This document shows positions 11,172 through 40,213 of a DNA stretch of 64,000 bases, one piece after another; within the stretch, counting starts at the first letter, position 1; each line of letters starts with the position of its first letter. A program made the translations under genes and the position numbers. The notes beneath the pieces are model-generated. The model had not been told where the DNA came from. It saw nothing but the letters and a program-made list of their open reading frames with translations, and ran no database searches. Source of the stretch: a bacterium (lineage in GTDB: Bacteria; Patescibacteriota; Microgenomatia; Levybacterales; UBA12049); NCBI GenBank assembly GCA_021813145.1, contig JAKALS010000002.1, positions 149,862 to 213,861 of the forward strand, written 5' to 3'.

Positions 11172-11771
11172 TTATTTTAACTTACTCATTGTAATTACTA
11201 CCTCAGTCGCACCTCCAACCCAGAAGCACCATACTCTTTCAAAAAACATTGGCGACAAATTAATCAGATAATTTAATATTCTTACAAATGGTCTTGCGAT
11301 ATGTGGACATTGATTTGGATGAACATATTTTTCGTAATCACCATCATTTGGATATAATCCAAAATATTTAATTTCTTTTTTTAAAATCTTAAACTCTTTG
11401 TCCGTATAAAAATGTTGATAATTATCCTTTTCAAAGCAATCAAAACTAGAATAGCCAAAAGGTCTAATATGAGTTATATCTGTAAAAGCTCCCATACTTG
11501 AAAAGTGAGGTACTCTTAAATAAAGCTTTCCACCTTTTTTTAAAATTCTGTGTATCTCTTCAATTTTTTTAATTGGTTCATTAAGATGTTCTAAGACATG
11601 ATACATATGAATTTCATCAATTGAGTCATTTTTAAACGGATAAGGAATAGTATCTAAATCATGAACTATGTCAACGTAGTTTTCTATTTTTACTCGATCA
11701 ACACCAATAGAATTTGGTATTCTAACCTTTCCACAACCTAAATTAACTACTATTTTTTTTATTTTTTTCAC
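11172..11771 (-). CDS. class I SAM-dependent methyltransferase
   Basis: 199 aa; 'VVNLGCGKVRIP...IDEIHMYHVLEHL' (motif I GxGxG and a post-I acidic residue). Confidence 0.7.
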   Translation of the reverse strand: MKKIKKIVVNLGCGKVRIPNSIGVDRVKIENYVDIVHDLDTIPYPFKNDSIDEIHMYHVLEHLNEPIKKIEEIHRILKKGGKLYLRVPHFSSMGAFTDITHIRPFGYSSFDCFEKDNYQHFYTDKEFKILKKEIKYFGLYPNDGDYEKYVHPNQCPHIARPFVRILNYLINLSPMFFERVWCFWVGGATEVVITMSKLK

Positions 11772-11772
11772 T

Positions 11773-13605: not shown

Positions 13606-13719
13606 AAAAAAAACTTTTTATACATTTAAATATCCTATCATAACTATGAAATTTCTAATTGAATATTTCTAAACAAAATAAAATTTACTATTGATTTAAT
13701 TTTCCAACAAAAAGAATAA

Positions 13720-14532: not shown

Positions 14533-14587
14533 ATAAATTCTAATCCCAACTAATTTGATACTAAAAGATTATAAAATATTTATTATC

Positions 14588-16353
<1,766 letters not shown>

Positions 16354-22686: not shown

Positions 22687-24336
22687 TCACCTTTTTACAA
22701 ACCTGAAAGCGGCAAATCCCAAGAGAAAAATAAGGCTTACCGCGGAAATAATATCGGATATAAATCTTAACCTTGTTTCCCCATACTTTGCTTGGACTAT
22801 ATAGTTTCCGGGGGAAAGGTGAAAAGTCATTATTCCCCTGTATTGCATATTCTGAAATTGGATGTTAACAGGTACCCCGTTTGCTGTTATTGTCCAGCCG
22901 GGAAAGTATAAAGTGTTCTCGGCAAAATACGTATTTTTGGTAACCGTTACTTCGTAAACGTGTTCAACGGCAAGTCTTTTTACTTCTTTTACCGTTGCCT
23001 TACCGTCCAATACCTGCAAATGGTTTTTGGGTCTATGCTCCATAAATCTTACCGACCAGACAGGAGAACTTTCTCCTGTATCGGTAGTGCCGTTATATAT
23101 CCCGGTATAAAAACTCTCGGGCTTGATAAGATAACCTTTTGGCGCAAAATAATCCCTGCTTACAAAAACGACGATTAAAATAAAAATTAATGAAAGATAA
23201 AATATATATTTTTTGGGAAACTCGTCCATCAGGAATGCACCCAAAACGGCTGTTGAAAATACCGTAATAGCCAAAAATCTCCATGGGAATTGGAAATTCT
23301 GTAAAATCATCATCTTTGCCCACAAAAAATTTGAGACTTGAAGCATTATAAAAATTGCACCCAACGTATAGATAATCAATGACAAAACAAGAAGCCAGTT
23401 TTTATTTTTTAGCTTAATGGATTTCCAGATAAGATAAGGTGAAAAAATCAGCGCAAGCCACTGGAAAATTCCAAGCTGGAGAGTAAACTGATCATAATCC
23501 CAGGGACCGTAAATAAGTCCAGATAAAGTTGCGAATCTTCCAATATATATGTTTTTTGTAACGATATTTCGCAAAGTATATTTTCCTTCCAAAAGGCCGG
23601 GAACCCAGAAGAATGCCGAAACAGTAAAGCCTCCAATGATTAATAATAAAAGATTAATGATTAATTGCTTACGTTCTTTGGAAAGATATACCATATATAT
23701 CGAGTAGAAGAGTATAAAAGGAACGTAAATTAAAGCAATTGCATTATGTGCAAGAATTAAAAAAGCCAAAGACAAAGAGCCCCCTGCCAAATATTTATAA
23801 TCCGCCTTTTTATACAATTTATAAATGAAGAAAAGGGCAAGAGGCATAAATGCAAAAGCAAGGTTTTCCCCTATATCTCCCCTTACATATAAATCTATAA
23901 ATCTGTAAGGGGCGTATGTATATAAAAATGCCCCGAATAACGAAGCATATTTTGAAGAAAACTGCGAAAGCCATAAATACATCAAAATAAAAGAAAAAAC
24001 CATTCCTAAGCCGAATACTATTTTTGTACTATCTACGAAAGAAAAACCTACAAAATGGAAAAAAGAAGCTATATATGAAGGCAACGGATAAAGAAACTCA
24101 AGTACAGGATGTCCGTATCCCCAATTAAGGTTTGGCCCCCACCGTGGAATTATATTTCCCTGCGTAAGATTGATATAAAAATTTGCGATTCTTACAACAT
24201 GGTCCTGACCGTCATCCGTCCAGGGAAGCCCCGGATGCAACAACGAAATAACCGGCAGAATTAATAAAACGATAAATACTGCCCAAAATAAATACTTCAT
24301 TTTCATTTTATTTAGCCCCTGGAGCATAAACATCAA
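22687..24336 (-). CDS. polytopic membrane protein, GT-C-like paralog family B ('hDD..H' loop family)
   Basis: 549 aa; N-terminal loop 'LLHPGLPWTDDGQDHVVRIANFYINLTQGNIIPRWGPNLNWGYGHPVLEFLYPLPSY' is shared with the 48537..50279 and 50276..51799 products. Confidence 0.5.
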   Translation of the reverse strand: MMFMLQGLNKMKMKYLFWAVFIVLLILPVISLLHPGLPWTDDGQDHVVRIANFYINLTQGNIIPRWGPNLNWGYGHPVLEFLYPLPSYIASFFHFVGFSFVDSTKIVFGLGMVFSFILMYLWLSQFSSKYASLFGAFLYTYAPYRFIDLYVRGDIGENLAFAFMPLALFFIYKLYKKADYKYLAGGSLSLAFLILAHNAIALIYVPFILFYSIYMVYLSKERKQLIINLLLLIIGGFTVSAFFWVPGLLEGKYTLRNIVTKNIYIGRFATLSGLIYGPWDYDQFTLQLGIFQWLALIFSPYLIWKSIKLKNKNWLLVLSLIIYTLGAIFIMLQVSNFLWAKMMILQNFQFPWRFLAITVFSTAVLGAFLMDEFPKKYIFYLSLIFILIVVFVSRDYFAPKGYLIKPESFYTGIYNGTTDTGESSPVWSVRFMEHRPKNHLQVLDGKATVKEVKRLAVEHVYEVTVTKNTYFAENTLYFPGWTITANGVPVNIQFQNMQYRGIMTFHLSPGNYIVQAKYGETRLRFISDIISAVSLIFLLGFAAFRFVKR

Positions 24337-25672
24337 CTCCCTTCAATGACCACATATAATACCAATATATATAAGATTCGGGTACACCCACCTGAAACTG
24401 TATTCTTCTTCCCTGTTCTACTGCCAGCATGGCTGTTTTTTCTCTCTTTGCAAAATTTCCTTCGTCTTTATAAGGTAAATATGTTGTAACTCCAATGTAG
24501 CAATAAACAATAAGAGTAATAACAACCAAACCTTTTGCAAAAAGATATTTAAAATTCCACACTCTGAAAATAAAATAAGAAAGGATAATCAGGACAATAA
24601 ACCTATTGATTATAAAATAATAATCGCTTATTTCTCCGCTGTAAGTAGTAAATATTATCCAGGGAACCATAAACCAAAGAAAAACAAGATAAAGAAATTT
24701 TTTACTCTCGGAGTTAAAAGATTTATAAAGATAAACCACGAAAAAGAAAGGCAATAATATTAATTTAAAGGAGGAAATCCTGTCATTTAAAAGGTAAGGG
24801 TTAAACTGAATAAGGGCATCCCCCATTATCTGTCTCATCCTTACAAGGTGAAACCCATGGAAGTAGGTAGAAAAATACGATGTCGCCGTAGAGTTTGCAG
24901 TCATATTTGTAACCGAATAAATTATATTCGGTATCAGCCAAATTATAAAAAACGGCAATCCAAAAACAATATATTTAAGGGTTTCTTTTGTTCTGGGAAA
25001 AAGAGGTAAGGAAAGAATAATAATTATTGGAAAAAATATTGCAGTAAAATGTAAATTAAAAGCAATTCCTACCATAATTGCCAAGGGAATTATTTTTTTT
25101 ACCTCCCCCAACAACACCTTATACAATAAATAAAAAATAATAAGAGATACTGCAGGAAGGATCTGAACCGGCCATTGTATTCCGTCAAAGACAATTGTAT
25201 GAAAATTAAATGTATTAATAGCAACCGCTATTATTGCCATCTCGGTAGAAAAAAGCTTCTTAACAACATAATACAAAGTGAAAAAAGTGAATAAGGCACT
25301 TACTATTGAAATAACCTGAGATGCTGCTGGGTTAAGATTAAACAGCCAATAAAAAAGCGAAATAAAATAATAATAAGCGGGGCCTATATATACTCCGCTG
25401 TTTTCCTTGGCTACCATTCCAACAAGAGGAAACCAATGGTTAAAAACTATATTTTTTGCAGCCCATGCATTGTCTACCTGGTCATATCCGAATGGAAATT
25501 TGATATTTATCTGATATGTTCTTAAAAAAAGTTCAAAAGCAAAAATTAATAGTAATATCCAAAAAGAAGGCTTCTTTAACAAAGGCTTAAACCTTAGAAC
25601 TTTTGATATAAGAACTTTTTGAATTTCTAATCTTTGATTTTTTGATTTCTTGATTTTTTTATTCTTTTCCAT
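24308..25672 (-). CDS. polytopic membrane protein, GT-C-like paralog family D
   Basis: 454 aa; 'FPFGYDQVDNAWAAKNIV...GPAYYYFISLFYW' parallels 'FAFTYDVGRDMLALWNIV...GPWWYYLLTPFF' in the next gene. Confidence 0.45.
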   Translation of the reverse strand: MEKNKKIKKSKNQRLEIQKVLISKVLRFKPLLKKPSFWILLLIFAFELFLRTYQINIKFPFGYDQVDNAWAAKNIVFNHWFPLVGMVAKENSGVYIGPAYYYFISLFYWLFNLNPAASQVISIVSALFTFFTLYYVVKKLFSTEMAIIAVAINTFNFHTIVFDGIQWPVQILPAVSLIIFYLLYKVLLGEVKKIIPLAIMVGIAFNLHFTAIFFPIIIILSLPLFPRTKETLKYIVFGLPFFIIWLIPNIIYSVTNMTANSTATSYFSTYFHGFHLVRMRQIMGDALIQFNPYLLNDRISSFKLILLPFFFVVYLYKSFNSESKKFLYLVFLWFMVPWIIFTTYSGEISDYYFIINRFIVLIILSYFIFRVWNFKYLFAKGLVVITLIVYCYIGVTTYLPYKDEGNFAKREKTAMLAVEQGRRIQFQVGVPESYIYWYYMWSLKGVDVYAPGAK

Positions 25673-25745
25673 AATCTATATTAAACAGTTAACGGATTAA
25701 CTCACTAACAAATTCATTAATATTTTAATACTTTAACCAGTAATC

Positions 25746-27239
25746 TTAATGAACTCTTGTCTGTACCGTTATTCCGCTAGGCAAGGTAATACTTTTTATA
25801 ATTTTACCGTCTCCAGCCCTCTGTTTCAGCCAATCCGTTAACCTTGAGGGATTCTGGTAATCAGGCTCCAAAATAAAATAAGCAAGATTTGACTGAACCG
25901 AGGGAGAATAATGATATTTTTGCGGACCATACCATAAATAAAGATATTGGTAAGTGTAATCATAAACAGGAGGAGTATAGACTACATATTTAAAATTCTT
26001 TCCGTTTGCCTGTCTGTATGTATAATCAATTACCGCCAGTTGATTCCTGTAAACAGACGCATCCCCTATCCACAATGGTCCTGTAACCGTTTTATATAAA
26101 ACAATAGGGTTAAGATTTATAAAAAAAATTACAATTGCTACTGCGGTGGGAATAAGTAAAGAAGTCTTTTTACCAAGAAGATAAAGGGAAATTGCAAAAA
26201 GCAAAACGTAAAATACGGGAACTCCTACAAGGTAATGCGGCCAGATATCATGACTGAAAAATATAGTTCCTGCTATAAACACAAAAATTACAATTAGGGA
26301 TGTGTTAATAAAATTTTTAATCGTTTTATCCGATTTTTTATAAAAAAGAACTAGACAAATAACAGTAAATAATAAACAAAGAGCTCCCAAGGCTAGATTA
26401 CCTCCCGCAAGGGTTGAATTAAACTGATCGAATAAAATTCCCAATCTGTTGAAAAACTCAAAGATCGAAAGAGAAGTTCCGGACGAAGAAGTATGGGAGA
26501 AAAAGCCGATAAATGCCTTTGTCATTAAAAACTGGTGCCTTAATTCAAAAAGAATTCGCGGAGCAAAAATTATTAACGCCCCTATAATAAAAAACAAAAT
26601 ATTTTTTAACAAGATTTTTCTCTTCATAGTAAAAATGACCGACAGCACAATTCCCGCAGAAAATAAAAGGCCAAAAACAATTTCGAGATCTATATTAAAA
26701 GCCAGAAGGATTCCTAAAAGGAAATAATAAAGTTGACTGTTCCTTTTTTCTCCTTTATAAATCTTAAAAAGTACTAAAAGAACAAAAATAACAAAAAGAG
26801 GAGCAATATTAGGATTCCAAATTTGCGAAGAAAGAGAGATAAGGTTTGGCGAAATGCTTATTAATGCTGCCATAATTAAGCCCAACAATTCTCCTCCAAG
26901 CCGTTTCCCAAAATAATATCCCAAGATAATTGAGGCAATTCCAATCAAAGCCATCAGAAATGCGATGCCTTGCGGATTTCCGGAAAAAATAATGAAAAAC
27001 GGGGTAAGTAAGTAGTACCACCATGGTCCGTAAAAAATTCCGGGAAGTCCCGTAGTTGCGCCTATTAATGGAAGCTTATGCAAATGGACTATATTCCAAA
27101 GGGCAAGCATGTCTCTTCCCACATCATAGGTAAAGGCAAATGAATTGGTGTAAACTCCCCAAAGACGCAAAAAAGCTCCGACAATAATTACCAGATACAA
27201 CAAAATTAACTCTTTTTTAAGAAACTTCTTAAAATCCAT
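25746..27239 (-). CDS. polytopic membrane protein, GT-C-like paralog family D (ArnT/GT39-like)
   Basis: 497 aa; acidic loop-1 motif YDVGRD, more than 10 TM helices. Confidence 0.45.
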   Translation of the reverse strand: MDFKKFLKKELILLYLVIIVGAFLRLWGVYTNSFAFTYDVGRDMLALWNIVHLHKLPLIGATTGLPGIFYGPWWYYLLTPFFIIFSGNPQGIAFLMALIGIASIILGYYFGKRLGGELLGLIMAALISISPNLISLSSQIWNPNIAPLFVIFVLLVLFKIYKGEKRNSQLYYFLLGILLAFNIDLEIVFGLLFSAGIVLSVIFTMKRKILLKNILFFIIGALIIFAPRILFELRHQFLMTKAFIGFFSHTSSSGTSLSIFEFFNRLGILFDQFNSTLAGGNLALGALCLLFTVICLVLFYKKSDKTIKNFINTSLIVIFVFIAGTIFFSHDIWPHYLVGVPVFYVLLFAISLYLLGKKTSLLIPTAVAIVIFFINLNPIVLYKTVTGPLWIGDASVYRNQLAVIDYTYRQANGKNFKYVVYTPPVYDYTYQYLYLWYGPQKYHYSPSVQSNLAYFILEPDYQNPSRLTDWLKQRAGDGKIIKSITLPSGITVQTRVH

Positions 27240-27247: not shown

Positions 27248-28987
27248 TCAAGTTCCTGCTATTCTTATTGCTGGTGTTCCGTTTAGGTTATAAATTGTTT
27301 TAGAAGCCGCGCTTTGGGGAATCTCCTGCGGAGTACCGATAAAGAGTATTCCTTTTTGTTTAGACTCTTGCGCCCAATTTATGGGTTTAAATACGTATTT
27401 ACCGAAACTGTGATGGGATGCAAAACCTCCCGAGCTTGTCTCTCCCACCTTTTGATAAAGGGCGGGCGGATATTTTAGATAGAACAGGAAGAACATATAG
27501 GATTTATCCATGGGCTGGTTGTCTGATACTCTTATTTCCTTATAATTGTTGCCTACAAGTTTTGCCTCTTCAACAGCCTGCTGGTAACCGTACTGCCAAT
27601 CCTGAGAAGTATAGTAATTAAGCTGAACAAAATACTGGTCAAGATAATAAATAAAATTAAGAGTGGCAAGTAGTATGAATAAAGTATAAAGCACCGGCTT
27701 AAAGTAAGCTAAATATTTAATACCTGATACTTTATACTGTTTAATCAGCAGGTACCCGCTGATTAAACCCAGGGCCGAAAGGATTTGCCAGGTGGGAAGA
27801 AAATTAAGGGTTCTTACCGCGTGAGGAACTCCGCTTGTAATAGAAGCCGGGACAGGCGCTAATAACATCCAGCCAAAAACCGTAAGCTTCGTCTTTCTGT
27901 CAAAAGGTCCGAATAGAAGCATGTAAATACCAAGAAGTATTAAAGGAAGCTCAAACAGATATATTAATCCCATATTTGGGGCATGGTGCCTTGATATATC
28001 GCCCGTAACAAAAAGCCAGTTGGGGTCAAAATGGACAATGTACCCCGAAATAATAGCTTTTGCGTACGTGATCCTTCTGTTATCTACTATTAATCCCAAG
28101 ATGTCGTGATTTGCTATGTCCCTTTGCAGTTTAGGTATGTCGTTGGAAAGAAGAACCGTCTGATGGGAAAATACGCTTGTCCCCGTAACCCTTAAAAGGG
28201 CCGCTCTATTTGTTAATATGAATACCACCATGGGAGTTACAACAATAAGCCCGAATATTACAACCGAAACTATATATTTTTTAGGAATCGAAAATAGTTG
28301 TTTACGGTATATAAGAGCAAGCGCCAAAACAAGAAGAGGTGTAAAAACTTTTTCGCTCTGGTAAACATAAATATCAAGGCCCGCAAAGAAAGCCGAAAGG
28401 AATAACATCCAACGGTTTTTTAAGCCCTTGATAAAAAACAAAGCCGTAAAAATATTAAAGGCATCCCCCGTATTTGCCTCAAATCCTACTCTTGAAAATT
28501 GTATAGACCAGGGAGAAATCGCCATGAACCCTGCCGAAAGCAAAGCTAATAGGTCGATATTTAGGACTTTGTATTTGGTGAATAGGGTTCCTTTTTCCTC
28601 TTCCTCTCCGGCTTTAAGTCCTACTTTTTCAGTCTTGCTTACCGAAAAGAGTTCTTTAACCAGGAAATACGTGGCTAAAACCGCAAGTGTTCCGAATATT
28701 GCAGACGGAAGACGGACGGCAAAAACATTAAGACCGAATATAAAAACCGTAGGTATTGCAAGATAAGCATAGAGGGCAGGTTTATAATCGTCAAAAGACC
28801 TAAGAACTACAGGCAAGAATTTCCCGAATTCGTCTCTTCCGGTGTGGATTATGGAATAGGCATCATACCCCAAGGCAACTTCATCCCAATCGGGAGAGGG
28901 AGGAACGTGTCCCAGCATCCAAAGCCTAAGGACTGCAGCCAAAATGACAATTCCCGCTAATATTAACCAAACAAGTTTCCTATTCAT
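27248..28987 (-). CDS. PMT_2/GT39-like phospholipid-carrier-dependent glycosyltransferase (tandem paralog 1 of 3)
   Basis: 579 aa; 'PSPDWDEVALGYDAYSIIHTGRDEFGKFLPV' loop-1 with the D-E motif; multi-TM. Confidence 0.6.
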   Translation of the reverse strand: MNRKLVWLILAGIVILAAVLRLWMLGHVPPSPDWDEVALGYDAYSIIHTGRDEFGKFLPVVLRSFDDYKPALYAYLAIPTVFIFGLNVFAVRLPSAIFGTLAVLATYFLVKELFSVSKTEKVGLKAGEEEEKGTLFTKYKVLNIDLLALLSAGFMAISPWSIQFSRVGFEANTGDAFNIFTALFFIKGLKNRWMLFLSAFFAGLDIYVYQSEKVFTPLLVLALALIYRKQLFSIPKKYIVSVVIFGLIVVTPMVVFILTNRAALLRVTGTSVFSHQTVLLSNDIPKLQRDIANHDILGLIVDNRRITYAKAIISGYIVHFDPNWLFVTGDISRHHAPNMGLIYLFELPLILLGIYMLLFGPFDRKTKLTVFGWMLLAPVPASITSGVPHAVRTLNFLPTWQILSALGLISGYLLIKQYKVSGIKYLAYFKPVLYTLFILLATLNFIYYLDQYFVQLNYYTSQDWQYGYQQAVEEAKLVGNNYKEIRVSDNQPMDKSYMFFLFYLKYPPALYQKVGETSSGGFASHHSFGKYVFKPINWAQESKQKGILFIGTPQEIPQSAASKTIYNLNGTPAIRIAGT

Positions 28988-28992
28988 AACCT

Positions 28993-30690
28993 CTATATGG
29001 TATACGCTACCAGCGCCGGCTGGCCGTCAAGCAAATAAAATGTTTTTTGAATTTTGATATTTTTCGGCAAATTATAAGGCGTATTTATATATAAGACTTT
29101 CTTTGTTTTGCTTAAATTATAGTTATAATTCTCCGGAAAAAGGTATTTGCCAAAACCCAGGATTGTTACAAATCCGAATGCATCTCTATGGATTATTGCG
29201 GTTTTTCTATAAACCTCGGGATTTGTTTTTGTATAAAAAAGATAATATATATAAGGTCTTCCCAAAGCATGCGTCATCTGTATGTAATCGTATTTGTTTT
29301 GCACCGACATTACATAATCTATAGATTGCTTATAGCCGTACTGCCATTCTCCGGAATATTCATAAGGATATTGATAAAAATATTCATGATAAAAGTAAAC
29401 AAAGTTCATAAAAAGTAAAACAAATAATACAACCGGTAAAAGAATTCCCATATTAAAGCTATATATTTTAAGTTTTAGGTCTTGCCTTTTTGTCCAGTCC
29501 AAAAAGGCAGCAAACCCGTAAGCCGTAAAAATCTGGAATGTTGGAAGAGTTGCCTCTATTCTTAGCGCATGAGGTGTCTGCTGTGCTGTTGCAGCGGGAA
29601 TTATTCCTACTAAAAGCCACAAGGGAACAAGCCACCAATTTCCCTCTTTTTTCCTTAACAAAAGAAGAATTCCCCCCACAAAAAATACGATATCCCAGAT
29701 ATACATCTGTCCGGTACTTTGAGTGGAAAACTTAGGATTACCGTCGCCTTTTATAAACAAGAACGAAGGGCTCAGGTTATCGAAATAATGCTGGGCAAAA
29801 TCCACAGAATATAAAAGCCTTCTGTTATGGATTATCTTTGACCAAAAAGCATTATTATCGTTAGCGATTTCCTGATTTGCAGTTTTGACTACATTTATGT
29901 CGCTGAATATATTTACTTCTTGAAACCTTAGTCCCGCTTGCGGAGTTAGCAAAAATCTGAATGTCGGAAGAAAGATAATAATTCCAACAACGGCCGATAT
30001 TATAGCCACTTTTTTCATCTTCCATAGTTTTTTCCAAAATGCCAGAGCCAGCAAAATTACCAAAAGCGGGGATACTATCCTTTCGGTATTAAAGGTATAC
30101 ATGGTAAGGGTAAAAGAAATAGCGGAAACAACAAGAAGCCACCTCTCGTAGCTTCTACGTCCGCTCAACTCTGCAGCTTGAACGGACGCAAGAAATGCCC
30201 ACACTCCCAATACAACAAAAAATGAAGCGACATTTGCTTCAAAAGCCGCACGCGAAAGCATAATGTGCCAGGGGGAAATAGCTAAAAATAAAGCAGCCAA
30301 AATACCTATAACATTTCTATTTTTTGAGGTATTAAATATTCTTCGGACAAGAAAGAAGGTAAGAAGGACCGTAAGGGTTCCGAAGAATGCCGAAGGGAAT
30401 CTTGTCGCGGTTTCGTTTAAACCTAAAATCTTAACGGGCAAAACATCAAGATATGCATACAAAGGAGGTTTAAAATCCCCGAAAGACTCCAGATAATCGT
30501 GAGGTAAAAATCTTCCGAATTCGTCTTTGCCGTTTACTCCCAAAGAATATGCATTATATCCCCAGGCTGCTTCGTCCCATGTCAAAGAAGGAGGATTACT
30601 CCCCAATTGATAAAATCTTAAAAATGCTGCGAGTAAAACTATCAGGAGCAATAATAGTTTCCAGTTAAATAATTTACGTACTACTAACAT
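28993..30690 (-). CDS. PMT_2/GT39-like glycosyltransferase (tandem paralog 2 of 3)
   Basis: 565 aa; 'PPSLTWDEAAWGYNAYSLGVNGKDEFGRFLPH'. Confidence 0.6.
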   Translation of the reverse strand: MLVVRKLFNWKLLLLLIVLLAAFLRFYQLGSNPPSLTWDEAAWGYNAYSLGVNGKDEFGRFLPHDYLESFGDFKPPLYAYLDVLPVKILGLNETATRFPSAFFGTLTVLLTFFLVRRIFNTSKNRNVIGILAALFLAISPWHIMLSRAAFEANVASFFVVLGVWAFLASVQAAELSGRRSYERWLLVVSAISFTLTMYTFNTERIVSPLLVILLALAFWKKLWKMKKVAIISAVVGIIIFLPTFRFLLTPQAGLRFQEVNIFSDINVVKTANQEIANDNNAFWSKIIHNRRLLYSVDFAQHYFDNLSPSFLFIKGDGNPKFSTQSTGQMYIWDIVFFVGGILLLLRKKEGNWWLVPLWLLVGIIPAATAQQTPHALRIEATLPTFQIFTAYGFAAFLDWTKRQDLKLKIYSFNMGILLPVVLFVLLFMNFVYFYHEYFYQYPYEYSGEWQYGYKQSIDYVMSVQNKYDYIQMTHALGRPYIYYLFYTKTNPEVYRKTAIIHRDAFGFVTILGFGKYLFPENYNYNLSKTKKVLYINTPYNLPKNIKIQKTFYLLDGQPALVAYTI

Positions 30691-32383
30691 TTATTCTTTG
30701 CTCCTTATAATATTTTAACAAATCCGAAGCATTAATTCCTTCAAACAAAATGTTTCCTAATTTATCTTTAATTGTAAATAGAGGCTTAAGAGTTTTTGGA
30801 AAATCAACAGGATTGGAAATAAAAAGAGCCGTATAATTCATTTGAGCAGAAAAAGTTGAAATTGTAGGTAAGTTTTGCACAAAGTATATATTATCAATCT
30901 TATCTACCGAAATCCAGCCGTCAGAGGCCTCATGAAATGACACATTCACTTTTTTTTGGAAATTACTAGGAGAATACTTATTGTAGAATAAATAATAAAC
31001 ATATTGTTTTGTATCATTAAGGTGGCGGGAAATATAGATTCTATCGTATTTATTTCTTTGACTAAAAACTGTTTTCATCAAATCTTCATATCCGTATTGC
31101 GAATAAAGAGAGTAATAATTTTTAAAATAGGTTGTATAATTTATCCAAAAAATAAACACAGAGAAAAAAACTATAAAAGAAATAAAAATATAGGAAAGTT
31201 TTTTGAGATATTTATAATCAGGCCTGGAGATAAGTTCAATGAGATAAAATAGGCCTATTCCCTCAATAATCAGGAGGAAGGGAATCATTATTGAAGCTCT
31301 TCCATAATGCCCTGCCCCTGTCAAAGAATCGGGTATAGGAGCTATCAAAAGTAACAAAATAATCAAAAATCCGTTTTTATCCCTATATTTAAGGATTCTA
31401 AATAGACCTAAAATCAATAATAAAACACCAAAAACGTAATCAAGTCCCCTCTGTGGAAGTATTGAATACTGTGTTTCGGTACCATTGTTATAAAGAAAAT
31501 TTATATTAAAGTGTGCAGTATAATTCTTTGCGAAAGTAGAAGTAAAAAGGAAAACCTTATTATCGGCTATTTTACAAATAAGTGAAATATAAGTCTTTTG
31601 ACACGCTCCTCTTTCATCATTAAGGGTATTTATTAAACCTATACTGTTAACATTGTTTATGATTCCCACCTGTGTGAAACGGACACCGGCAGTAGTATCT
31701 TTCGTAAGAAAATTTGGTATTAAAACTATTACAAACAAAATGAATGCTATTAGATATTGTTTATAATTTTTAAAAACTATTTTCTTGTTCCAGAACAGCA
31801 ACAAAACGGCAACCAAAGGAAGAAAAAGGACATAAGCGGAATAGGTATATAAAACCAGGGCAAACAGTAACACTGAAATATATAAATAGTTTATTTTTTT
31901 AAGGGAATGCAAATAAATAAAAAAAGAAAAAAGAAAAATGGTTATGGCAATATTTGGCTCTATTGTCACTCTACTCAAGCCAATAGCCCAAGGAGAAATC
32001 GCAAGCAAAAATGATGCAAATAAACCTATTTTTTCATTAAATAATTTTTTTCCCAAAAAAAATAGCAACAGTACGGAAATAACCCCGAAAAGGGCAGAAG
32101 GAAATCTCACCGAAAAACTGTTCAATCCAAAAAACAAAATAGACGGAACTGTTAGATATCTTAGTAAGGGGGCAGGATAATCTCCAAAAGCGATAAAATG
32201 TAGCGGTAGAAATTGATTCCATTGGTCTCTTCCGGTTAAAAGTATTGAATATGCATCCCAACCGACTCCTGCTTCGTCATTTGTTAATCCTGACGGAATG
32301 CTTCCAAGCATATAAAACCTTAAAAATGCTGCAAGTAAGATTATAAAGATTAATGAAAGTCTCCAATTAAATATTTTTTTCAT
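30674..32383 (-). CDS. PMT_2/GT39-like glycosyltransferase (tandem paralog 3 of 3)
   Basis: 569 aa; 'PSGLTNDEAGVGWDAYSILLTGRDQWNQFLPL'. Confidence 0.6.
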   Translation of the reverse strand: MKKIFNWRLSLIFIILLAAFLRFYMLGSIPSGLTNDEAGVGWDAYSILLTGRDQWNQFLPLHFIAFGDYPAPLLRYLTVPSILFFGLNSFSVRFPSALFGVISVLLLFFLGKKLFNEKIGLFASFLLAISPWAIGLSRVTIEPNIAITIFLFSFFIYLHSLKKINYLYISVLLFALVLYTYSAYVLFLPLVAVLLLFWNKKIVFKNYKQYLIAFILFVIVLIPNFLTKDTTAGVRFTQVGIINNVNSIGLINTLNDERGACQKTYISLICKIADNKVFLFTSTFAKNYTAHFNINFLYNNGTETQYSILPQRGLDYVFGVLLLILGLFRILKYRDKNGFLIILLLLIAPIPDSLTGAGHYGRASIMIPFLLIIEGIGLFYLIELISRPDYKYLKKLSYIFISFIVFFSVFIFWINYTTYFKNYYSLYSQYGYEDLMKTVFSQRNKYDRIYISRHLNDTKQYVYYLFYNKYSPSNFQKKVNVSFHEASDGWISVDKIDNIYFVQNLPTISTFSAQMNYTALFISNPVDFPKTLKPLFTIKDKLGNILFEGINASDLLKYYKEQRINVSST

Positions 32384-32955
32384 TTATTACCAGTAAACCA
32401 CATGTTTAAGCCCATTTCAAAATATCCGCTTTTTATGTTTCTGAAATTGTCATTTTTTAAATAATCTCTGATTATTTTTGACGTCAGATTATGTTTGTGT
32501 TCGTGTATTTCTTCTTTACTTACAAAGCCAGTCCTTGCCATAATTTTTAATATTTTATCTGACCAGGGCGCGGGAGTTGTCATTACCAGAACTCCTCCCT
32601 TTTTTAATACCCTATTAACTTCTTTTAAAACAAAAGAGATTTTTTTATGGTCAAGGTGTTCAAAAACCGCAAGCATTGTTACTGCATCAAAAAAATTATC
32701 CCTAAAAGGTAACTTTTGTTTTGTAATATCTCCTTTTTTAAGTTTTAAGTTTTCTATTTTAAGTTTTGTCAGCGACGGATCTATACCGTATCTTTCCTTA
32801 AATTTTGTGTTTAGAAGAAAATAAGGAGAAGATCCGCATCCTACATCCAGTACTCTTTCTTTTTTTGTCTTTCTTAAAAGAATGTTTGCCCTTTGCGCTC
32901 TTTTTTTTGACAAAAATCCTTCAAGTAATCCCGTTCCTCTTGTTACGTTTGCCAT
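32380..32955 (-). CDS. class I SAM-dependent methyltransferase
   Basis: 191 aa; 'RVLDVGCGSSPYF...AVTMLAVFEHL...LKKGGVLVMTTP'. Confidence 0.75.
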   Translation of the reverse strand: MANVTRGTGLLEGFLSKKRAQRANILLRKTKKERVLDVGCGSSPYFLLNTKFKERYGIDPSLTKLKIENLKLKKGDITKQKLPFRDNFFDAVTMLAVFEHLDHKKISFVLKEVNRVLKKGGVLVMTTPAPWSDKILKIMARTGFVSKEEIHEHKHNLTSKIIRDYLKNDNFRNIKSGYFEMGLNMWFTGNK

Positions 32956-32956: not shown

Positions 32957-33664
32957 TTAATTTGTAAACCTGTATTTGAATAAATACCAAAGTGCTTTTG
33001 AACCGTCCCTTACCGTATTGAGCTTTTTACCTTCTTCGTATCCCCTGGGAGTTGCTTTTATGGATACCTCTTTTATTTTATAGCCCTGCTTTAATAATTT
33101 GGATGTAATTTCGGGCTCGAACTCGAATCCTCTTGCGTTAATTTTTATAAGAGAAACCGCTTTTTTGGGAAAAAGCTTATAACACGTTTCCATATCGGTA
33201 AGCCATTGCCCGTAAAGAACACTTGTAACAAGGCTTAAAAATCTGTTGCCGAAATAATGGAGTATGAAAAGATGTTTTGCTTCTTCTTTATTCAAATGAG
33301 GCATTCTGTTTAATCTTGTTCCGTATACGACTTCTGCCTTTTTTTCCATAATTGGTTTTAAAAGATTTTTTATCTGGTTAGGGTGATATTCCAAATCCGC
33401 ATCCTGAATTAAAATATATTCTCCCTTTGCCGATTTTATACCTGTTTTTACTGCTGCTCCCTTGCCCTGATTTTTGGAATGAGTTAAAACTTTAACCCTT
33501 GTACTCTTTAATTTTTTAATAAGATTTGCCGTGGAATCAGTTGAGCCGTCATTTACAACAATTACTTCATAAATAACAGGTATATCGGCTTTTTTAAGCC
33601 TTCCTAAGATTTGAAGGATTGTTTTTTCCTCGTTATATACGGGAACTATTACAGATAATTTCAT
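32957..33664 (-). CDS. GT2 Dpm1-like polyprenyl-phosphate sugar synthase (soluble)
   Basis: 235 aa; 'LSVIVPVYNEEKTI...EVIVVNDGSTDST...GKGAAVKTG...QDADLEY'. Confidence 0.75.
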   Translation of the reverse strand: MKLSVIVPVYNEEKTILQILGRLKKADIPVIYEVIVVNDGSTDSTANLIKKLKSTRVKVLTHSKNQGKGAAVKTGIKSAKGEYILIQDADLEYHPNQIKNLLKPIMEKKAEVVYGTRLNRMPHLNKEEAKHLFILHYFGNRFLSLVTSVLYGQWLTDMETCYKLFPKKAVSLIKINARGFEFEPEITSKLLKQGYKIKEVSIKATPRGYEEGKKLNTVRDGSKALWYLFKYRFTN

Positions 33665-35605
33665 TTATATTTTATAAAGAGCGGATTCTCCTTTACCATT
33701 AATTAACTTCAGTTTTATAAACTTATCGGCGCAAGTATTCTTTTTTAAAAGTAAAAGGTATTGATTATTACTTTCTTCCATCAAATTTATTATGTTATGT
33801 TCAGCAGTTTTTGGATTACTACAATTTACCATATTTTCAGCTATTTTATCTATAATCATTTTTCTTTTATCTACAACATTATTTAAACCTTGAAATTGCG
33901 CTATTTCTTCTTCGTAATAAACGGGGTGTCCGCTTATACCAGCAATTAACGGGCTGCTGTATAAAGTTTCATACGTTCCTTTTATTATTGGCCTATTTAT
34001 TACTATAATTCCCGTTCTTGAAGGCAAATTTCTTATTATTTTTGTTTTTTCTACTAGCCCGGAATCTATAAATGTAGGGTCTATGGAATAAGTCATAAAA
34101 GTTTTAAAAAAATCTGGAAAGAATAAAACAAAAAATATTACTAGGCTAATGATAAAAAGTTTTCTGTTTTTGTCTATTACGTTCCCTATGACATAAGCGG
34201 TAGGAACCAAAAGTATTATATAACCGGCCCAAAAAAACTGGATGTTTTGAAATGTTGAACTGCTCTGTACAAAAAGGCTTGGAATAATGAATGAAATTAA
34301 TATAGTAGTTAGCCAAAATATATTATTTAGGCTATAAAACTTTTTACTAAACAATTTTTTAAACTTTAAAAAAACTACCACTCTTATTCCTAAGCTTGTA
34401 AACAAAAATATAAATATTGCTACTGCATAAAAAAAGGCAATATGAATGTAATTATGCGACTGAACATAAATAGGGAAATTAACATTCCAATGCCAGTTAT
34501 TAAAAATCCAAGCGCTATCGATAAAGTTTTTATAAATAAGAAAGGGGGCAAAAACAAGACTTCCTGCACCAAAATTAATCGGTAAAAAAACAATTGAGGA
34601 AATAATTCCTGATAAGATAAAGGTTTTTAATAATTGGAAATTTCTTTTTTTATATAAGTCCCATAATGCAATAATTCCAAAACCAGTATAAAAAATAATT
34701 GATGGATAAATTTTTACTTCGGGAAGAATGCCTATTATAAGGGCTGGTAAAAAGAAAGCCCACTTTTTTCCTTTTGAAAACAGCAATATAAAGCCTATAA
34801 AAAAGAATCCTACGGAAATAATTACCGTAGGATCAAGCATATTTGCTATAGACTGCATGATTCCTGCCGAGTTGTAATAATAATTAAATAACCTGTAAAT
34901 ATAATAAGCGTAAAAATCAAAACTCTGTGCAAAATACATTAGGATAATAAAAATTATAAGTGTAAAATTTTTCCATTTTAAAAATCTTCCGAGTGAGAGA
35001 GATGAAATTCCATAAAGAACAGATATAAATAAAGCAAAATCCCTAAAGAATAAATCAAAAACATTCAAATGATAAAATTTAGAGAATTCTGCAATGAGAA
35101 AATCATAAAAAATATGATAGCCTCTTAAGGGAACACCCGCCAAACCTGGATGAACAGGAGGAAAGCCGGAAATAAGGCTGTAAATTAATGACGTATTAAA
35201 CAGCGAGTCTGCCGAATTAATTCCATAAAAGACCAATTTACCGTTATCGTATAATCCCGAACGCAAAGTCAAATATGACATGGAAAGAGAACCAATAATA
35301 ATAAGAAGATACTCGGGAGAAACTATTTTTCTTATCTCAACCTTTTCTTTTAACTCAAGGTAAGACTTCTTTCCCTCAAAAAGTAACGCAAAAGGAATAA
35401 CAAGATTGAATAGATAATCAAGCTTTATAAAAGACAAAATAAATGTCAAAAATAAGAATAGGGAAATACCGATAATCAAAGAGGAGGTAAATGTAATTAT
35501 AAAATCTCCAAATTTATAACCGGAAATCCTTAAGGTAAATCTTCCGGGAAGATAAAAAACAATAAATGCAAGGAAAAAGAATAAAAGCAAATTTAATAAC
35601 TGCAT
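33665..35605 (-). CDS. large polytopic membrane protein, unknown (GT-C/polymerase-like architecture)
   Basis: 646 aa; about 14 predicted TM segments followed by a C-terminal soluble domain of about 150 aa; no motif I can name. Confidence 0.45.
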   Translation of the reverse strand: MQLLNLLLFFFLAFIVFYLPGRFTLRISGYKFGDFIITFTSSLIIGISLFLFLTFILSFIKLDYLFNLVIPFALLFEGKKSYLELKEKVEIRKIVSPEYLLIIIGSLSMSYLTLRSGLYDNGKLVFYGINSADSLFNTSLIYSLISGFPPVHPGLAGVPLRGYHIFYDFLIAEFSKFYHLNVFDLFFRDFALFISVLYGISSLSLGRFLKWKNFTLIIFIILMYFAQSFDFYAYYIYRLFNYYYNSAGIMQSIANMLDPTVIISVGFFFIGFILLFSKGKKWAFFLPALIIGILPEVKIYPSIIFYTGFGIIALWDLYKKRNFQLLKTFILSGIISSIVFLPINFGAGSLVFAPFLIYKNFIDSAWIFNNWHWNVNFPIYVQSHNYIHIAFFYAVAIFIFLFTSLGIRVVVFLKFKKLFSKKFYSLNNIFWLTTILISFIIPSLFVQSSSTFQNIQFFWAGYIILLVPTAYVIGNVIDKNRKLFIISLVIFFVLFFPDFFKTFMTYSIDPTFIDSGLVEKTKIIRNLPSRTGIIVINRPIIKGTYETLYSSPLIAGISGHPVYYEEEIAQFQGLNNVVDKRKMIIDKIAENMVNCSNPKTAEHNIINLMEESNNQYLLLLKKNTCADKFIKLKLINGKGESALYKI

Positions 35606-36571: not shown

Positions 36572-36595
36572 TTCTAATGATTAGAATCATTAGAA
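36572..36595. promoter_or_regulatory. perfect 11-bp inverted repeat with 2-nt spacer (ttctaatgatt-ag-aatcattagaa) between the YfhO-like gene and the downstream GT2 gene
   Basis: Read directly from sequence at 36572..36595; overlaps the stop codon of 36590..38863; no adjacent U-run on the transcribed strand. Confidence 0.4.
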
Positions 36596-38863
36596 CAGTG
36601 TGTCGTAAAATTCTATCGTGTGTTCCCCCTTGGGAACTATTACTCCCCTAAAATTATAATCCGTTCTGAATATCTTTGTTTGCTTTCCGTCTATTTTTGC
36701 GTGCCAGGTGGGATAATAGCTGTCCGTTAAAACCATAAAAGCTTTTCCCGCCGTTAATGTTTTAATGACCACTTTATTTTCCCCGTAATAACTTATTTGC
36801 GCCTGTCCTCCGCTCCAATTTGTCGTAAATTTATTTACTCCTTCGACAACTGCCCTGTTATTAAGAAGAAAATTGGGGTCGAACATCTTATTTATTGCAT
36901 CCTGCTTTGAGGTTGCAACAACCGTAGTAGGTACAAAAAATGCTCTGGGCAAAGCGTTTTTGTTTGCGTAAACATTTACGGTCCCGTCGGAGAATACGGG
37001 AGTAAGATTGGGATCTTTTATGTTCTCGAGGCTTAATACATAAACAACATTCATAAAAGAAATAAGACGCGAAGAATAATTTTGGGGTGTAATTATCCTG
37101 TTAAAACCAAACGGAGTAGAGATATCGGGTTTATTCCTTCCAACGGCTGCCATTAACTCTCCGTAGCGCTGAAGATACAAGGGATCGTATCCGTCCAATG
37201 TCTGGATTTTATACATATCCGAAAAGTTAGGAGGCAGAATTTTGGAATCCAGGGACATCACCCTAAAAGGTCCGCCCGAGTTTTGCTGCTCTAAAAAAGT
37301 CATTACCGCCTGGGAAGGAAAAAGATAAGCTTTGTTTGTAAAAGGCTCAAATTTCCACCCGAATCGGAAAAGGTCAAATAAAGATACAAGAATTAAAAGA
37401 TAAGAAATAATAAGTATGTAAGGAAATTTGCCAAGCTTCCCTTTTAAAAATACGGAAACAACAAGAATTAAAGTAACAACTGCAAATATGACAGAAGGCA
37501 AAATAAGATTTTGTTTTGCAACGCTTAAATCTGCAGGAGCAAGAATATGCCCGTGAAGGAATAGGACAAAAGTCCAAAGACCCGCAAAAGCCAGAGCAAA
37601 GATTCCAAGAATATATAGAATTGGTTTTTTGTTTTTTAAAGAAACGTAATAGTCCATTCCAAGGGCCGCCAAAACACTCAGGGAAAAATCAATTAAAAAC
37701 AACAGTCTTGTCGGCTGTGCCGTAGAAATAAACGGAATGTTCAGTTTAAAAGGAATTTTTGCAAAAATAGTCGGGAGGGCAAAAAATAAAGAAACGAAAA
37801 ATACCGTACCGAAAAATAAAGTCTTTTTGTCGCGCCTGAAAAATAGAGCAAAAAAAGCGGTTATAAGAGGAAAAATTCCGATGTATCCGATAAACTCCGC
37901 ATAGTTCCACACCCCGAAATAATTAAGGGTGGCGGGGTTCCCGAAAAAGTCCGGGGCCAAAAACTGCACCAGATTTTGCCATGGAATAAACCAGCCTGCC
38001 TGGGTATATCCGGGAAGGTCAACGTTTCTTGCCGAAAGGAGAATAAATCGTAGAGTAGGCAGCCACTGGACCAACGTCAGAATTAAGAATAAAAAAGTAA
38101 GAATTAAGAATAATAACAAAGATTTTAATTTTTTTCCCTGTTGGAAGAGCCTTGCGAGAAAATACGCAAGAGATATAAGTGAAAGGTAGAAAAAAGTTTG
38201 AAGGTGTCCCGCAAAAAAGGAAAAAACCAATGATAAAACGAATATGCTTCCCCAGATAATTATTGATTTTTGATTGCCGATTTTTCTTTTTTCAAATATT
38301 TTGTCTATGGATAACAAAACCAGCGGTAGCCACAAAGCGGTATTTCCAATTGTTCCCCATTCAAGCCATGCAATTGAAAAACCGCAAAAAGCAAACGCCG
38401 AAGCACCCAAAAAAGAAGCCTCTTTTCTAATCTTTAAATTTGTTAGATACAAATAAAGGAACAGTCCGGCTAAAATTGGCTGGATAATAATTAGAAGGCT
38501 CCAGGAAAAAGAAAAAGGCAAGACAAAAAACAGTAAGTTAAAGGGATAAAAAACAGCCGACTGGAAATTAGCCAGTAAGGGATAACCCGCAAAGTTATAC
38601 GGATTCCACAAAGGCAAACTCAAATTCTTTTCCGCCTGAATTACAAGATTTCTCCAGGGATATTGCTGTCTAACCGGATCCGTTACGAGAAAATTTTTAT
38701 ATGGTACTCCGTTTGGGTTTGTCTTTTGGTAAATTTCCCTGAAAGGATAATAAAGGCCGACTATTGTATCGGAAGGAATTGGCAAAAGCCCTTTTAGCAA
38801 AAACTGCCAGAAAAATACCAAAACAGCAAGAACTATTATTAATAAATAAAAATATCTTTTCAT
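36590..38863 (-). CDS. YfhO-family membrane glycosyltransferase-like protein (paralog 1 of 3)
   Basis: 757 aa; N-terminal 'DPVRQQYPWRN...LPLWNPYNFAGYPLLANFQSAVFYPFNLLFF', then about 13 TM helices, a soluble C-terminal domain and a terminal TM. Confidence 0.55.
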   Translation of the reverse strand: MKRYFYLLIIVLAVLVFFWQFLLKGLLPIPSDTIVGLYYPFREIYQKTNPNGVPYKNFLVTDPVRQQYPWRNLVIQAEKNLSLPLWNPYNFAGYPLLANFQSAVFYPFNLLFFVLPFSFSWSLLIIIQPILAGLFLYLYLTNLKIRKEASFLGASAFAFCGFSIAWLEWGTIGNTALWLPLVLLSIDKIFEKRKIGNQKSIIIWGSIFVLSLVFSFFAGHLQTFFYLSLISLAYFLARLFQQGKKLKSLLLFLILTFLFLILTLVQWLPTLRFILLSARNVDLPGYTQAGWFIPWQNLVQFLAPDFFGNPATLNYFGVWNYAEFIGYIGIFPLITAFFALFFRRDKKTLFFGTVFFVSLFFALPTIFAKIPFKLNIPFISTAQPTRLLFLIDFSLSVLAALGMDYYVSLKNKKPILYILGIFALAFAGLWTFVLFLHGHILAPADLSVAKQNLILPSVIFAVVTLILVVSVFLKGKLGKFPYILIISYLLILVSLFDLFRFGWKFEPFTNKAYLFPSQAVMTFLEQQNSGGPFRVMSLDSKILPPNFSDMYKIQTLDGYDPLYLQRYGELMAAVGRNKPDISTPFGFNRIITPQNYSSRLISFMNVVYVLSLENIKDPNLTPVFSDGTVNVYANKNALPRAFFVPTTVVATSKQDAINKMFDPNFLLNNRAVVEGVNKFTTNWSGGQAQISYYGENKVVIKTLTAGKAFMVLTDSYYPTWHAKIDGKQTKIFRTDYNFRGVIVPKGEHTIEFYDTLF

Positions 38864-39940: not shown

Positions 39941-40213
39941 TTGCAAAGTTATCCATTAAGATTTAAAATCAAATTAATGAATAGTTTTTATAACCTTGCA
40001 CAAATTCCCCCTTATGTACTTTTTATTCTATTTATCTGGTCCCTTATCTGGAAAGGCTTGGCTCTTTGGAGAGCCGCAAAACTCGGGCAAAAAAACTGGT
40101 TTGTAGTTATGCTTGTTGTAAACTCTATAGGAATTCTTGAAATCGTATATCTTTTTTACTTTGCAAAAAAGAGAATGAAGCTTAAAGAACTTATGTTCTG
40201 GGAATCAAAATAA
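39941..40213 (+). CDS. small membrane protein (DUF5652-like)
   Basis: 90 aa; 'WSLIWKGLALWRAAKLGQKNWFVVMLVVNSIGILEIVYLFYF', two TM helices; resembles a small-protein family I associate with Patescibacteria. Confidence 0.45.
   Translation: MQSYPLRFKIKLMNSFYNLAQIPPYVLFILFIWSLIWKGLALWRAAKLGQKNWFVVMLVVNSIGILEIVYLFYFAKKRMKLKELMFWESK

Follow-up and report, generated by a model that had tools for sequence, protein, structure and literature searches.

Do three neighboring genes for similar membrane glycosyltransferases in a Levybacterales genome reflect a recent tandem triplication, or an older arrangement with a defined place in the cell envelope? The genes, here called A1, A2, and A3, lie head to tail in a 64,000-nucleotide stretch of contig JAKALS010000002.1 (assembly GCA_021813145.1, positions 149,862 to 213,861). 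This whole stretch is referred to as the window, and all coordinates are positions within it. The trio is best described as a conserved pair of genes for glycosyltransferases of the C fold (GT-C), A2-A1, together with an accessory paralog, A3, in a large envelope-glycosylation locus. We consider it likely that the three are anciently diverged GT-C paralogs of the PMT_2 type that use lipid-linked donors, with A2-A1 as the fixed part and A3 as an optional one. A3, A2, and A1 belong to a very large family of membrane sugar transferases, in which they are unremarkable and carry existing annotations, and a literature search returned no paper on this named family or on the Levybacteria cluster. The cell envelopes of candidate phyla radiation (CPR) bacteria are almost uncharacterized, and their surface glycans probably govern host attachment and phage evasion.

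The trio consists of three end-to-end paralogs

Pairwise BLASTP aligned the three proteins over essentially their full length, with identities of 35% for A1/A2 (E = 1e-95), 31% for A2/A3 (E = 4e-69), and 29% for A1/A3 (E = 4e-58). End-to-end alignment at such E-values indicates true paralogy rather than a shared transmembrane composition, and the proteins have a loop motif in common as well. The original prediction, made from the letters alone, had described three head-to-tail genes of 565 to 579 amino acids (aa) with PMT_2/GT39-like similarity. The open reading frames (ORFs) bear this out (Table 1), and all three products score above the gathering threshold of Pfam PMT_2 (PF13231, 26.1 bits), with 28.0 bits for A1 (E = 3e-6), 44.1 bits for A2 (E = 3e-11), and 53.5 bits for A3 (E = 4e-14). 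The copy which had been counted as the third, A3, is the first of the trio in the direction of transcription.

The genes are closely packed. The upstream methyltransferase gene overlaps the start of A3 by 4 nucleotides (nt), the first 17 nt of A2 are shared with the end of A3, with AAGGAG ahead of the A2 start, and the A2 stop is followed by the A1 start after a gap of 5 nt, with a GAGG spanning or overlapping the A2 stop codon. Scans for promoters and terminators between 21.5 and 41 kb yielded 70 and 17 candidates, respectively, compared to 66 and 17.6 expected from shuffled sequence, and are therefore uninformative.

The loop-1 motif reads PPSPDWDEVALGYDAYSIIHTGRDEFGKFLP in A1, PPSLTWDEAAWGYNAYSLGVNGKDEFGRFLP in A2, and PSGLTNDEAGVGWDAYSILLTGRDQWNQFLP in A3. 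Its Asp-Glu pair (D-E) is located 12 to 13 residues past the end of the first transmembrane segment (TM1), where the first outer loop begins. The pair is invariant in the trio, and among 127 family members from 80 other genomes its conservation is 90% or higher; in A2, family-wide conservation of residues D39, E40, D56, and P63 is complete or at least 90%. The motif as first written down is present, except that A3 is one residue out of register and reads GWDAYS, not GYDAYS. The residue preceding D-E is W in A1 and A2 and N in A3. The product of positions 54158 to 55690, which had been proposed for comparison, also contains the motif and the following K. It is no fourth member of the group: it matched the family profile over its N-terminal 216 residues only (hhalign probability, 74%; residues 1 to 216) and shares just the N-terminal catalytic module. 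The presence of D-E and K in this protein marks the motif as a signature of PMT_2-type enzymes generally, not one special to the trio.

The predicted fold is that of a GT-C enzyme

Single chains of A2 and A3 were modeled with AlphaFold2 and compared to the PDB using Foldseek. Both models were of high quality by their own scores (A2, pLDDT of 88.5 and pTM of 0.89; A3, pLDDT of 89.9 and pTM of 0.90). They consist of an N-terminal TM, a structured first extracytoplasmic loop (EL1) that opens with D-E, and ten more TMs (11 in total), followed by a C-terminal alpha/beta domain of approximately 120 residues that is predicted to be extracytoplasmic; TM7 and TM8 are connected by an 85-residue helical outer loop (EL4). 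The best match was ArnT for both proteins (5ezm for A2, E = 4e-8; 5f15 for A3, E = 9e-9), with TM-scores of 0.52 to 0.55. The order of matches after ArnT was as follows: the oligosaccharyltransferases (OSTs) AglB, STT3, and PglB, then the protein O-mannosyltransferases (PMTs) Pmt4 and Pmt1-Pmt2, ALG9 and ALG12, and Emb proteins. High-probability matches were GT-C enzymes exclusively, the best of them with a Foldseek probability of 1.00. The trio can be regarded as PMT_2 enzymes of the GT-C fold.

Sequence searches against the PDB were less productive. A2 alone had no match, and a 40-sequence profile had ArnT as its sole significant match, which was marginal (E = 8e-4) and placed the family's D(F/Y)KPP opposite EKPP of ArnT. 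In a 127-sequence N-terminal profile, LRFYqLG..P....DE..G was aligned opposite ARFYKIW-YPKEVVFDEVHFG of yeast Pmt4, a segment that is statistically weak alone. This weak alignment puts D-E in register with the PMT motif FDEVHFG and agrees with the match of A2 to Pfam PMT (PF02366) over residues 17 to 248 (40.5 bits, E = 3e-10; cut-off, 22.7 bits). We accept D-E as the putative loop-1 catalytic or metal motif of the GT-C enzymes, in line with the earlier assignment to the loop of PMT and ArnT.

A second short motif, WQYGY, directly follows the last TM (A2 residues 449 to 453, positions 29332 to 29346, minus strand) and is conserved in most family clades. It resembles WWDYG of the OSTs, which ranked second by fold. 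With a profile of the C-terminal 215 residues, only noise and no OST was retrieved from the PDB, and this resemblance is thus without sequence support.

Could the three be true GT39 enzymes, that is, PMTs acting on secreted or surface proteins? The score of A2 above the PMT gathering threshold, the register of D-E, and the predicted PMT-like topology with 11 TMs all point in this direction, and Caldicellulosiruptor needs a GT39 protein of similar size, the 556-aa Cbes_1864, to glycosylate proteins (PMC6151902). Against it, PF02366 was not matched by A1 or A3 at an E-value of 0.01 or less, and neither PMT_4TMC nor MIR was found by Pfam in any of the three; some orthologs of A3 and A1 do have a precomputed PF02366 match. 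By fold, PMTs were outranked by ArnT and OSTs. No NCBIfam equivalog was matched by the trio, and no NCBIfam family at all by A1 or A2 at an E-value of 1e-3 or less. Polysaccharide genes (Wzx, GT4, GT2, and YfhO), moreover, abound in the locus. On balance, a role as true PMTs is a serious candidate that we nonetheless doubt. Nor did an ArnT-type NCBIfam or Pfam model match the trio. Considering the domains, the ArnT model, the number of TMs, and the nearly equal fold distances, strict membership in GT39 or GT83 is not established. The name "GT39" in NCBI records was likewise rejected as a functional assignment, since the trio lacks PMT-defining domains and is, in structure, no farther from ArnT and OSTs than from PMTs.

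What can be stated is the breadth of the family. A profile of the family was searched against 1.84 billion cluster representatives (clusters at 50% identity) and retrieved 40,802 at an E-value of 1e-3 or less and 6,197 at 1e-30 or less. The best 150 were nearly all full-length proteins of about 510 to 600 aa, three being partial. This subfamily (Pfam PMT_2; kin of ArnT, PMT, and OST) has many members in Levybacteria and other Patescibacteria.

A2 and A1 form an old, fixed pair

To place the trio among related loci, one genome per species was scanned and ORFs were assigned to window genes by BLASTP. The 80 loci obtained were nearly all from Candidatus Levybacteria/Levyibacteriota and included a Roizmanbacteria contig. 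Many of them (L005, L010, L015, L017, and others) are deposited in third-party assemblies titled "uncultured Gammaproteobacteria bacterium," and one A1 homolog is labeled Actinobacteria; these are probably wrong taxonomic labels on Levybacteria-type sequences.

The loci have a common backbone, YfhO-GT4-YfhO-GT2-GT2(235 aa)-(methyltransferase)-[variable slot]-A2-A1-PMT_2(497)-PMT_2(454)-PTPS_related(549)-GT2-epimerase, and the same gene order was seen in independent contig look-ups, including one contig of 863 kb. A1 directly follows A2 in 73 of the 74 loci with enough downstream sequence. The single miss is an artifact of the ORF filter, as the synteny table has A1 beside A2 in this locus, too. 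Between the A2 stop and the A1 start, both the modal and the median distance are -4 nt, and in 69 of the 80 loci the distance does not exceed 20 nt.

Homologs were most numerous for A2 (more than 3,175; best 120 at 65 to 80% identity), followed by A1 (2,353; best 120 at 60 to 74%) and A3 (395; best 120 at 42 to 85%). The best ones for A2 belong to Patescibacteria or Levybacteria and carry the names "glycosyltransferase family 39 protein" or "ArnT-like." When 244 family members were clustered by distance, separate clades were resolved for A2 (84 sequences), A1 (73 sequences), and A3 (9 sequences). A1 and A2 joined first, A3 stood apart, and at least 10 further clades were present. With a median identity of 59% across 83 loci, compared to 53% for A1 and 52 to 56% for other GT-C genes, A2 exceeds every other GT-C of the locus in conservation and is on par with soluble enzymes. 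A2-A1 is an old, fixed pair.

All three genes are maintained by selection. The nonsynonymous divergence (dN) from their nearest relatives was 0.12 to 0.25, and synonymous sites were saturated, with a proportion of synonymous differences (pS) of 0.63 to 0.84. Low dN with saturated dS indicates purifying selection. Of the dN/dS comparison that had been suggested, the dN values are thus usable; the dS values are saturated, and a comparison between the paralogs is meaningless.

The adjacency of A2 and A1 and their 4-nt overlaps suggest stoichiometric coexpression, arising either from a heteromer or from two consecutive steps. The first of these possibilities takes A2-A1 as an obligate hetero-oligomeric GT-C comparable to Pmt1-Pmt2 or EmbA-EmbB, with A3 as an alternative partner or a stand-alone enzyme. 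It would account for the strict co-occurrence of the pair, for the modal start/stop overlap, and for the conservation of both proteins with their catalytic residues, and the nearest solved relatives do include dimers (Pmt1-Pmt2, the Pmt4 homodimer, and EmbA-EmbB). Two enzymes acting in sequence on one acceptor, however, would give the same synteny, and no A2-A1 fusion was found among 360 listed homologs, all of which are 604 aa or shorter. We therefore entertain an obligate complex only tentatively and think it rather doubtful.

A3 is an accessory gene of persistently low GC content

The position immediately upstream of A2 is highly variable, being occupied by 17 different kinds of genes across the loci. 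An A3 ortholog (48 to 67% identity) was present in 9 of the 80 loci only (L008, L009, L012, L014, L015, L019, L021, L026, and L054), each time directly upstream of A2. In the closest relatives of the window (A2 identity of 70 to 80%), the slot contains a different family member that is 29 to 33% identical, and otherwise it holds other GT-C genes. A3 is hence an accessory lineage in a variable slot.

Its base composition differs from that of the core pair. The GC contents of A1, A2, and A3 are 40.6, 37.2, and 30.5%, respectively, and 39.0, 35.3, and 26.3% at third codon positions (GC3). A3 is lower than A1 and A2 at all three codon positions, so the lower GC content first noticed for this copy is real. 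It had been taken as a hint of a separate origin or rapid divergence; a separate origin in this genome is not supported. A3 was lower in GC content than the neighboring A2 in nine of nine other genomes, by a mean of 4.0 points (Wilcoxon P = 0.004), and the divergent GT-C genes of the slot were 1.9 points lower than A2 on average (P = 6e-12, n = 72). No such difference was observed between A1 and A2 across loci. Since the low GC content of A3 recurs in nine other genomes, it represents a standing property of an accessory gene lineage and not a recent foreign entry.

These data bear directly on whether A3 and the adjacent gene for a 646-aa membrane protein were acquired together from a lower-GC donor outside the lineage. 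The two are the lowest in GC content of the trio block (30.5 and 28.8%, compared to 37 to 41% for A2 and A1), the slot is hypervariable, and the distribution of A3 is patchy, as the closest relatives (L002 to L007) lack it and more distant ones have it. Yet all A3 orthologs detected reside in Levybacteria-type loci at the same position upstream of A2, and a GC deficit that persists from genome to genome, in A3 as well as in other slot genes, is better explained by exchange within the lineage or by relaxed selection under AT-biased mutation. We consider an import from outside distinctly unlikely. The low GC content would be consistent with AT-biased mutation acting under relaxed constraint, or with genes that circulate among AT-rich Levybacteria.

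Divergence of the paralogs is concentrated in an outer loop

To compare conservation by region, the family alignment was mapped onto the topology of A2. In EL1, EL2, and EL5, conservation within clades was 0.62 to 0.96, and the paralogs were 46 to 62% identical (25 to 50% in EL5). EL4 was conserved within clades (0.66 to 0.80), whereas identity between the paralogs of the window was 23 to 28%. For TM10-11 and the C-terminal domain, the values were 0.57 to 0.74 within clades and 12 to 34% between paralogs. The original prediction had stated that the proteins diverge outside loop 1. This is correct only in relative terms, as the alignments run from end to end and TM1 and TM2-3 remain 44 to 71% identical between paralogs; the regions outside these and EL1/EL2 are at 12 to 34%.

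EL4 also carries the largest number of substitutions that are fixed between the A1 and A2 clades, such as NPKFSTQ in A2 versus xRHHAP in A1. In A3, it contains a specific CX8C motif whose two cysteines, C261 and C270, are 100% conserved in 118 A3 orthologs. Proteins of the A1 and A2 clades have 0.6 Cys on average, none of which is conserved. In the A3 model, C261 and C270 are found on adjacent short helices of EL4 (residues 245 to 262 and 267 to 273), so that CX8C may form a disulfide staple in this extracytoplasmic loop. A conserved donor or catalytic face combined with a clade-specific outer loop would fit the pattern expected from different acceptor specificities. The suggested sub-functionalization is in this respect upheld in substance, by separate orthologous groups and fixed differences in EL4.

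A separate feature is confined to A1: a charged insertion of 21 residues, VSKTEKVGLKAGEEEEKGTLF (residues 116 to 136, positions 28580 to 28642, minus strand), lies in the predicted cytoplasmic loop between TM2 and TM3 and is missing from virtually every one of the 244 aligned family members.

The A1, A2, and A3 clades all keep D-E, D56, R97, the SPW..SR..E motif, NRR/NK, and the H..R motif, and thus none of them looks catalytically dead. K85 in EKPP of ArnT reportedly binds undecaprenyl phosphate. The Lys aligned to it is clade conserved in A1 (DYKPA) and A2 (DFKPP); A3 lacks it (DYPAP), the position being variable in its clade. A3 furthermore has a weak match to an NCBIfam model, the "flippase activity-associated" Agl23 model, at an E-value of 1.6e-9 and far below the cut-off. 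These two peculiarities of A3 could be read as signs that one or more copies are dead scaffolds or carrier-binding proteins, but with the polar residues retained in every clade and all three genes under purifying selection, this is very unlikely.

Finally, a tandem triplication that happened recently in this lineage and led to sub-functionalization, with which the trio was initially explained on the strength of three adjacent homologous genes sharing a motif, is hardly credible, given that the copies are only 29 to 35% identical, that each has its own orthologous group elsewhere (42 to 85% identity), that A2 neighbors A1 in practically every one of the 80 loci, including that of Roizmanbacteria, and that A3, a more distant clade found in nine loci only, clusters outside the group formed by the ancient A2-A1 pair.

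Proposed route of sugar transfer

A possible pathway can be drawn from the fold, the conserved residues, and the gene content. The soluble GT2 encoded two genes upstream of A3 would attach a sugar to polyprenyl phosphate on the inner side of the membrane. The lipid-linked sugar would then be flipped across the membrane, for which the two Wzx-type genes of the locus are candidates. Each GT-C would transfer the sugar to an acceptor at the outer face, with the loop-1 Asp-Glu as the base or metal ligand and with conserved residues of EL1, EL2, and EL5 holding the polyprenyl phosphate. A2 and A1 would act as a translationally coupled pair on a conserved acceptor, in sequence or as a hetero-oligomer. 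A3 would be the optional enzyme of the variable slot and might add a strain-specific decoration, its specificity coming from the TM7-TM8 loop with CX8C.

Precedents exist for polymer and for protein acceptors. In multicomponent systems of Gram-positive bacteria, a C55-P-sugar made by a GT-A enzyme crosses the membrane with the help of a GtrA- or Wzx-type flippase and is transferred to a polymer by an outer GT-C; the GT-C is sometimes of the PMT_2 type, as in Listeria GtlB, and some variants combine a soluble GT-A with a Wzx-type flippase (PMC8035078). Proteins are the acceptors of the streptococcal PgfS/PgfM1/PgfM2 and GtrB/PgtC2 systems (PMC12041528), as well as in the case of Cbes_1864 mentioned above. 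The polysaccharide-type gene content of the locus leads us to lean slightly toward a glycopolymer. By rough estimate, a cell-wall or surface glycopolymer would be the foremost candidate without being a firm one, Ser/Thr residues of surface proteins would come second and are less likely, and a glycolipid is unlikely.

It should be noted that several observations weigh against this scheme. The fold matches reach TM-scores of only about 0.5, with ArnT, OST, and PMT at almost the same distance, so the structure does not fix the type of donor (P- or PP-linked). A3 lacks the Lys aligned to K85 of ArnT. The 235-aa GT2 has AglJ, PgfS, PpgS, ArnC, and Dol-P-hexose transferase as its best NCBIfam matches, all of them below the cut-offs, which makes its specificity for a lipid phosphate a family-level assignment. 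As for flippases, no GtrA-sized gene fits the gaps of the window. Adjacency and overlap are no proof of a physical A2-A1 complex, to which the lack of fusions among the listed homologs adds.

A bolder proposal is that an obligate A2-A1 heteromer, as a counterpart in bacteria to Pmt1-Pmt2 or EmbA-EmbB, is universal in Levybacteria, that the slot genes, A3 among them, are interchangeable specificity modules, and that the GT-Cs of the locus build most of the surface glycan outside the membrane. We deem it unlikely at this stage. If true, a mycobacterium-like extracytoplasmic assembly line of A2-A1, slot genes, and at least nine other GT-Cs could set host or phage recognition in an organism with a genome of probably about 1 Mb.

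Irrespective of this, the locus is split into a core, the invariant and tightly coupled A2-A1, and an adjacent hypervariable GT-C slot. This sets right the view of such arrays as products of recent duplication or as foreign islands. A2, A1, and the neighboring GT2 provide a concrete target for heterologous reconstitution.

Neighboring genes and the glycosylation locus

Coordinates of the trio, its motifs, and neighboring genes are listed in Table 1. The 235-aa GT2 is kept upstream of the pair, with 57 to 80% identity. The 646-aa protein had no Pfam or NCBIfam match, and profile comparison with the A family (probability, 17%) indicated no relationship; orthologs at 40% identity or more were present in 3 of 83 loci only.

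Table 1 Positions of the trio, its sequence motifs, and neighboring genes in the window
Feature	Position	Strand	Description
A1	27248-28987	Minus	579-aa GT-C glycosyltransferase; second gene of conserved pair
A2	28993-30690	Minus	565-aa GT-C glycosyltransferase; first gene of conserved core pair
A3	30674-32383	Minus	569-aa GT-C (PMT_2) glycosyltransferase; transcribed first of the trio; accessory member
A1 loop-1 motif	28811-28903	Minus	D35-E36 codons at 28880-28885; from translation
A2 loop-1 motif	30502-30594	Minus	D39-E40 codons at 30571-30576; from translation
A3 loop-1 motif	32204-32296	Minus	D36-E37 codons at 32273-32278; from translation
A3-specific CX8C (C261...C270)	31574-31603	Minus	TM7-TM8 outer loop
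GT-C genes downstream of the trio	22687-27239	Minus	497-aa PMT_2, 454-aa PMT_2, and 549-aa PTPS_related; conserved backbone
Methyltransferase	32380-32955	Minus	191 aa, S-adenosylmethionine dependent; Methyltransf_11, E = 4e-16; conserved in many loci
GT2	32957-33664	Minus	235 aa, no TM segments; Glycos_transf_2, E = 2e-35; candidate polyprenyl-phosphate-sugar synthase
Polytopic membrane protein	33665-35605	Minus	646 aa; about 11 predicted TMs; GC content of 28.8%, lowest of the block; accessory
Wzx-type genes	17253-18575 and 46393-47847		Neither adjoins the trio

Nearly the whole window (353 to 57673) is a one-strand glycosylation superlocus of roughly 55 kb with a backbone order conserved across Levybacteria. 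It encodes at least 12 Pfam-supported GT-Cs (six PMT_2, three YfhO, and three PTPS_related), about six unassigned polytopic proteins, five small GT2s, GT4s, two Wzx-type flippases, epimerases, acetyltransferases, and methyltransferases. Paralogous triplets occur for YfhO (36590 to 38863, 40205 to 42547, and 51783 to 54158) and for PTPS_related (22687 to 24336, 48537 to 50279, and 50276 to 51799).

A low-GC island (26 to 31%, compared to approximately 37% elsewhere) extends from 4019 to 15400 and contains GT11, GT2, and GT4-like genes and two genes for membrane proteins of about 760 aa. Its start adjoins the only plus-strand gene of this region, a gene of the Replic_Relax (replication-relaxation) family at 4019 to 4876, which hints at a mobile-element origin of the island. 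Between a YfhO and a GT4 gene, a small plus-strand ORF (39941 to 40213) encodes 90 aa with one hydrophobic segment, and a 79-aa DUF5652 gene is called at the equivalent position in L001 and L002. Beyond the superlocus, a 406-aa plus-strand ORF without a Pfam match (57761 to 58981) carries an N-terminal tandem pair of NWPIEDP(R/L)DGRGF(H/R)F, and the only tRNA of the window, tRNA-Glu (CTC; 62838 to 62912, plus strand), is located between HlyD-like genes and a Lon protease fragment.

Comparison with known systems

ArnT (GT83; Cupriavidus metallidurans, 5EZM and 5F15) resembles the trio in fold, in KPP/EKPP, in its size of about 550 aa, and in having a C-terminal extracytoplasmic domain. The identity is about 11%, though, and ArnT reportedly has 13 TM helices, compared to 11 in the models of the trio. 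To our knowledge, lipid A, the acceptor of ArnT, is not expected in monoderm-like CPR bacteria.

PMTs (GT39; yeast Pmt1-Pmt2 and Pmt4, bacterial Cbes_1864) share with the trio the register of the loop-1 D-E, 11 TMs, and a large TM7-TM8 loop, and Cbes_1864 is similar in size. They are dimers of paralogs, a possible parallel to the A2-A1 pair. Unlike them, the trio has no MIR or PMT_4TMC domain and carries a C-terminal alpha/beta domain with WQYGY, and for most PMT entries the fold match to the models covers about 270 residues only (TM-score of approximately 0.3). With respect to OST (GT66), WWDYG is not found in the trio, WQYGY being a resemblance only.

The Gram-positive systems GtlA/GtcA/GtlB, CsbB/GtcA/YfhO, GacI/J/K/L, and PgfS/PgfM1/PgfM2 coencode a GT-A that makes C55-P-sugar with one or more GT-Cs, to which the candidate GT2 and the GT-Cs of the locus would correspond. 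They differ from the locus in that no GtrA gene is present in it and its number of GT-Cs, at least 12, is far larger. The Pgf operon has two GT-C paralogs, like the locus described here, but the PgfM proteins are of the YfhO type and not of the PMT_2 type.

The mycobacterial Emb proteins (GT53) are much longer (about 1,050 to 1,100 residues), have carbohydrate-binding domains, belong to another CAZy family, and match the models weakly (E = 7e-4 to 6e-2). By analogy only, embC-embA-embB nevertheless resembles the trio: three head-to-tail GT-C paralogs in one operon that use polyprenyl-P-sugar donors outside the membrane, with EmbA-EmbB forming a heterodimer (PDB 7BVF) and the third Emb acting separately.

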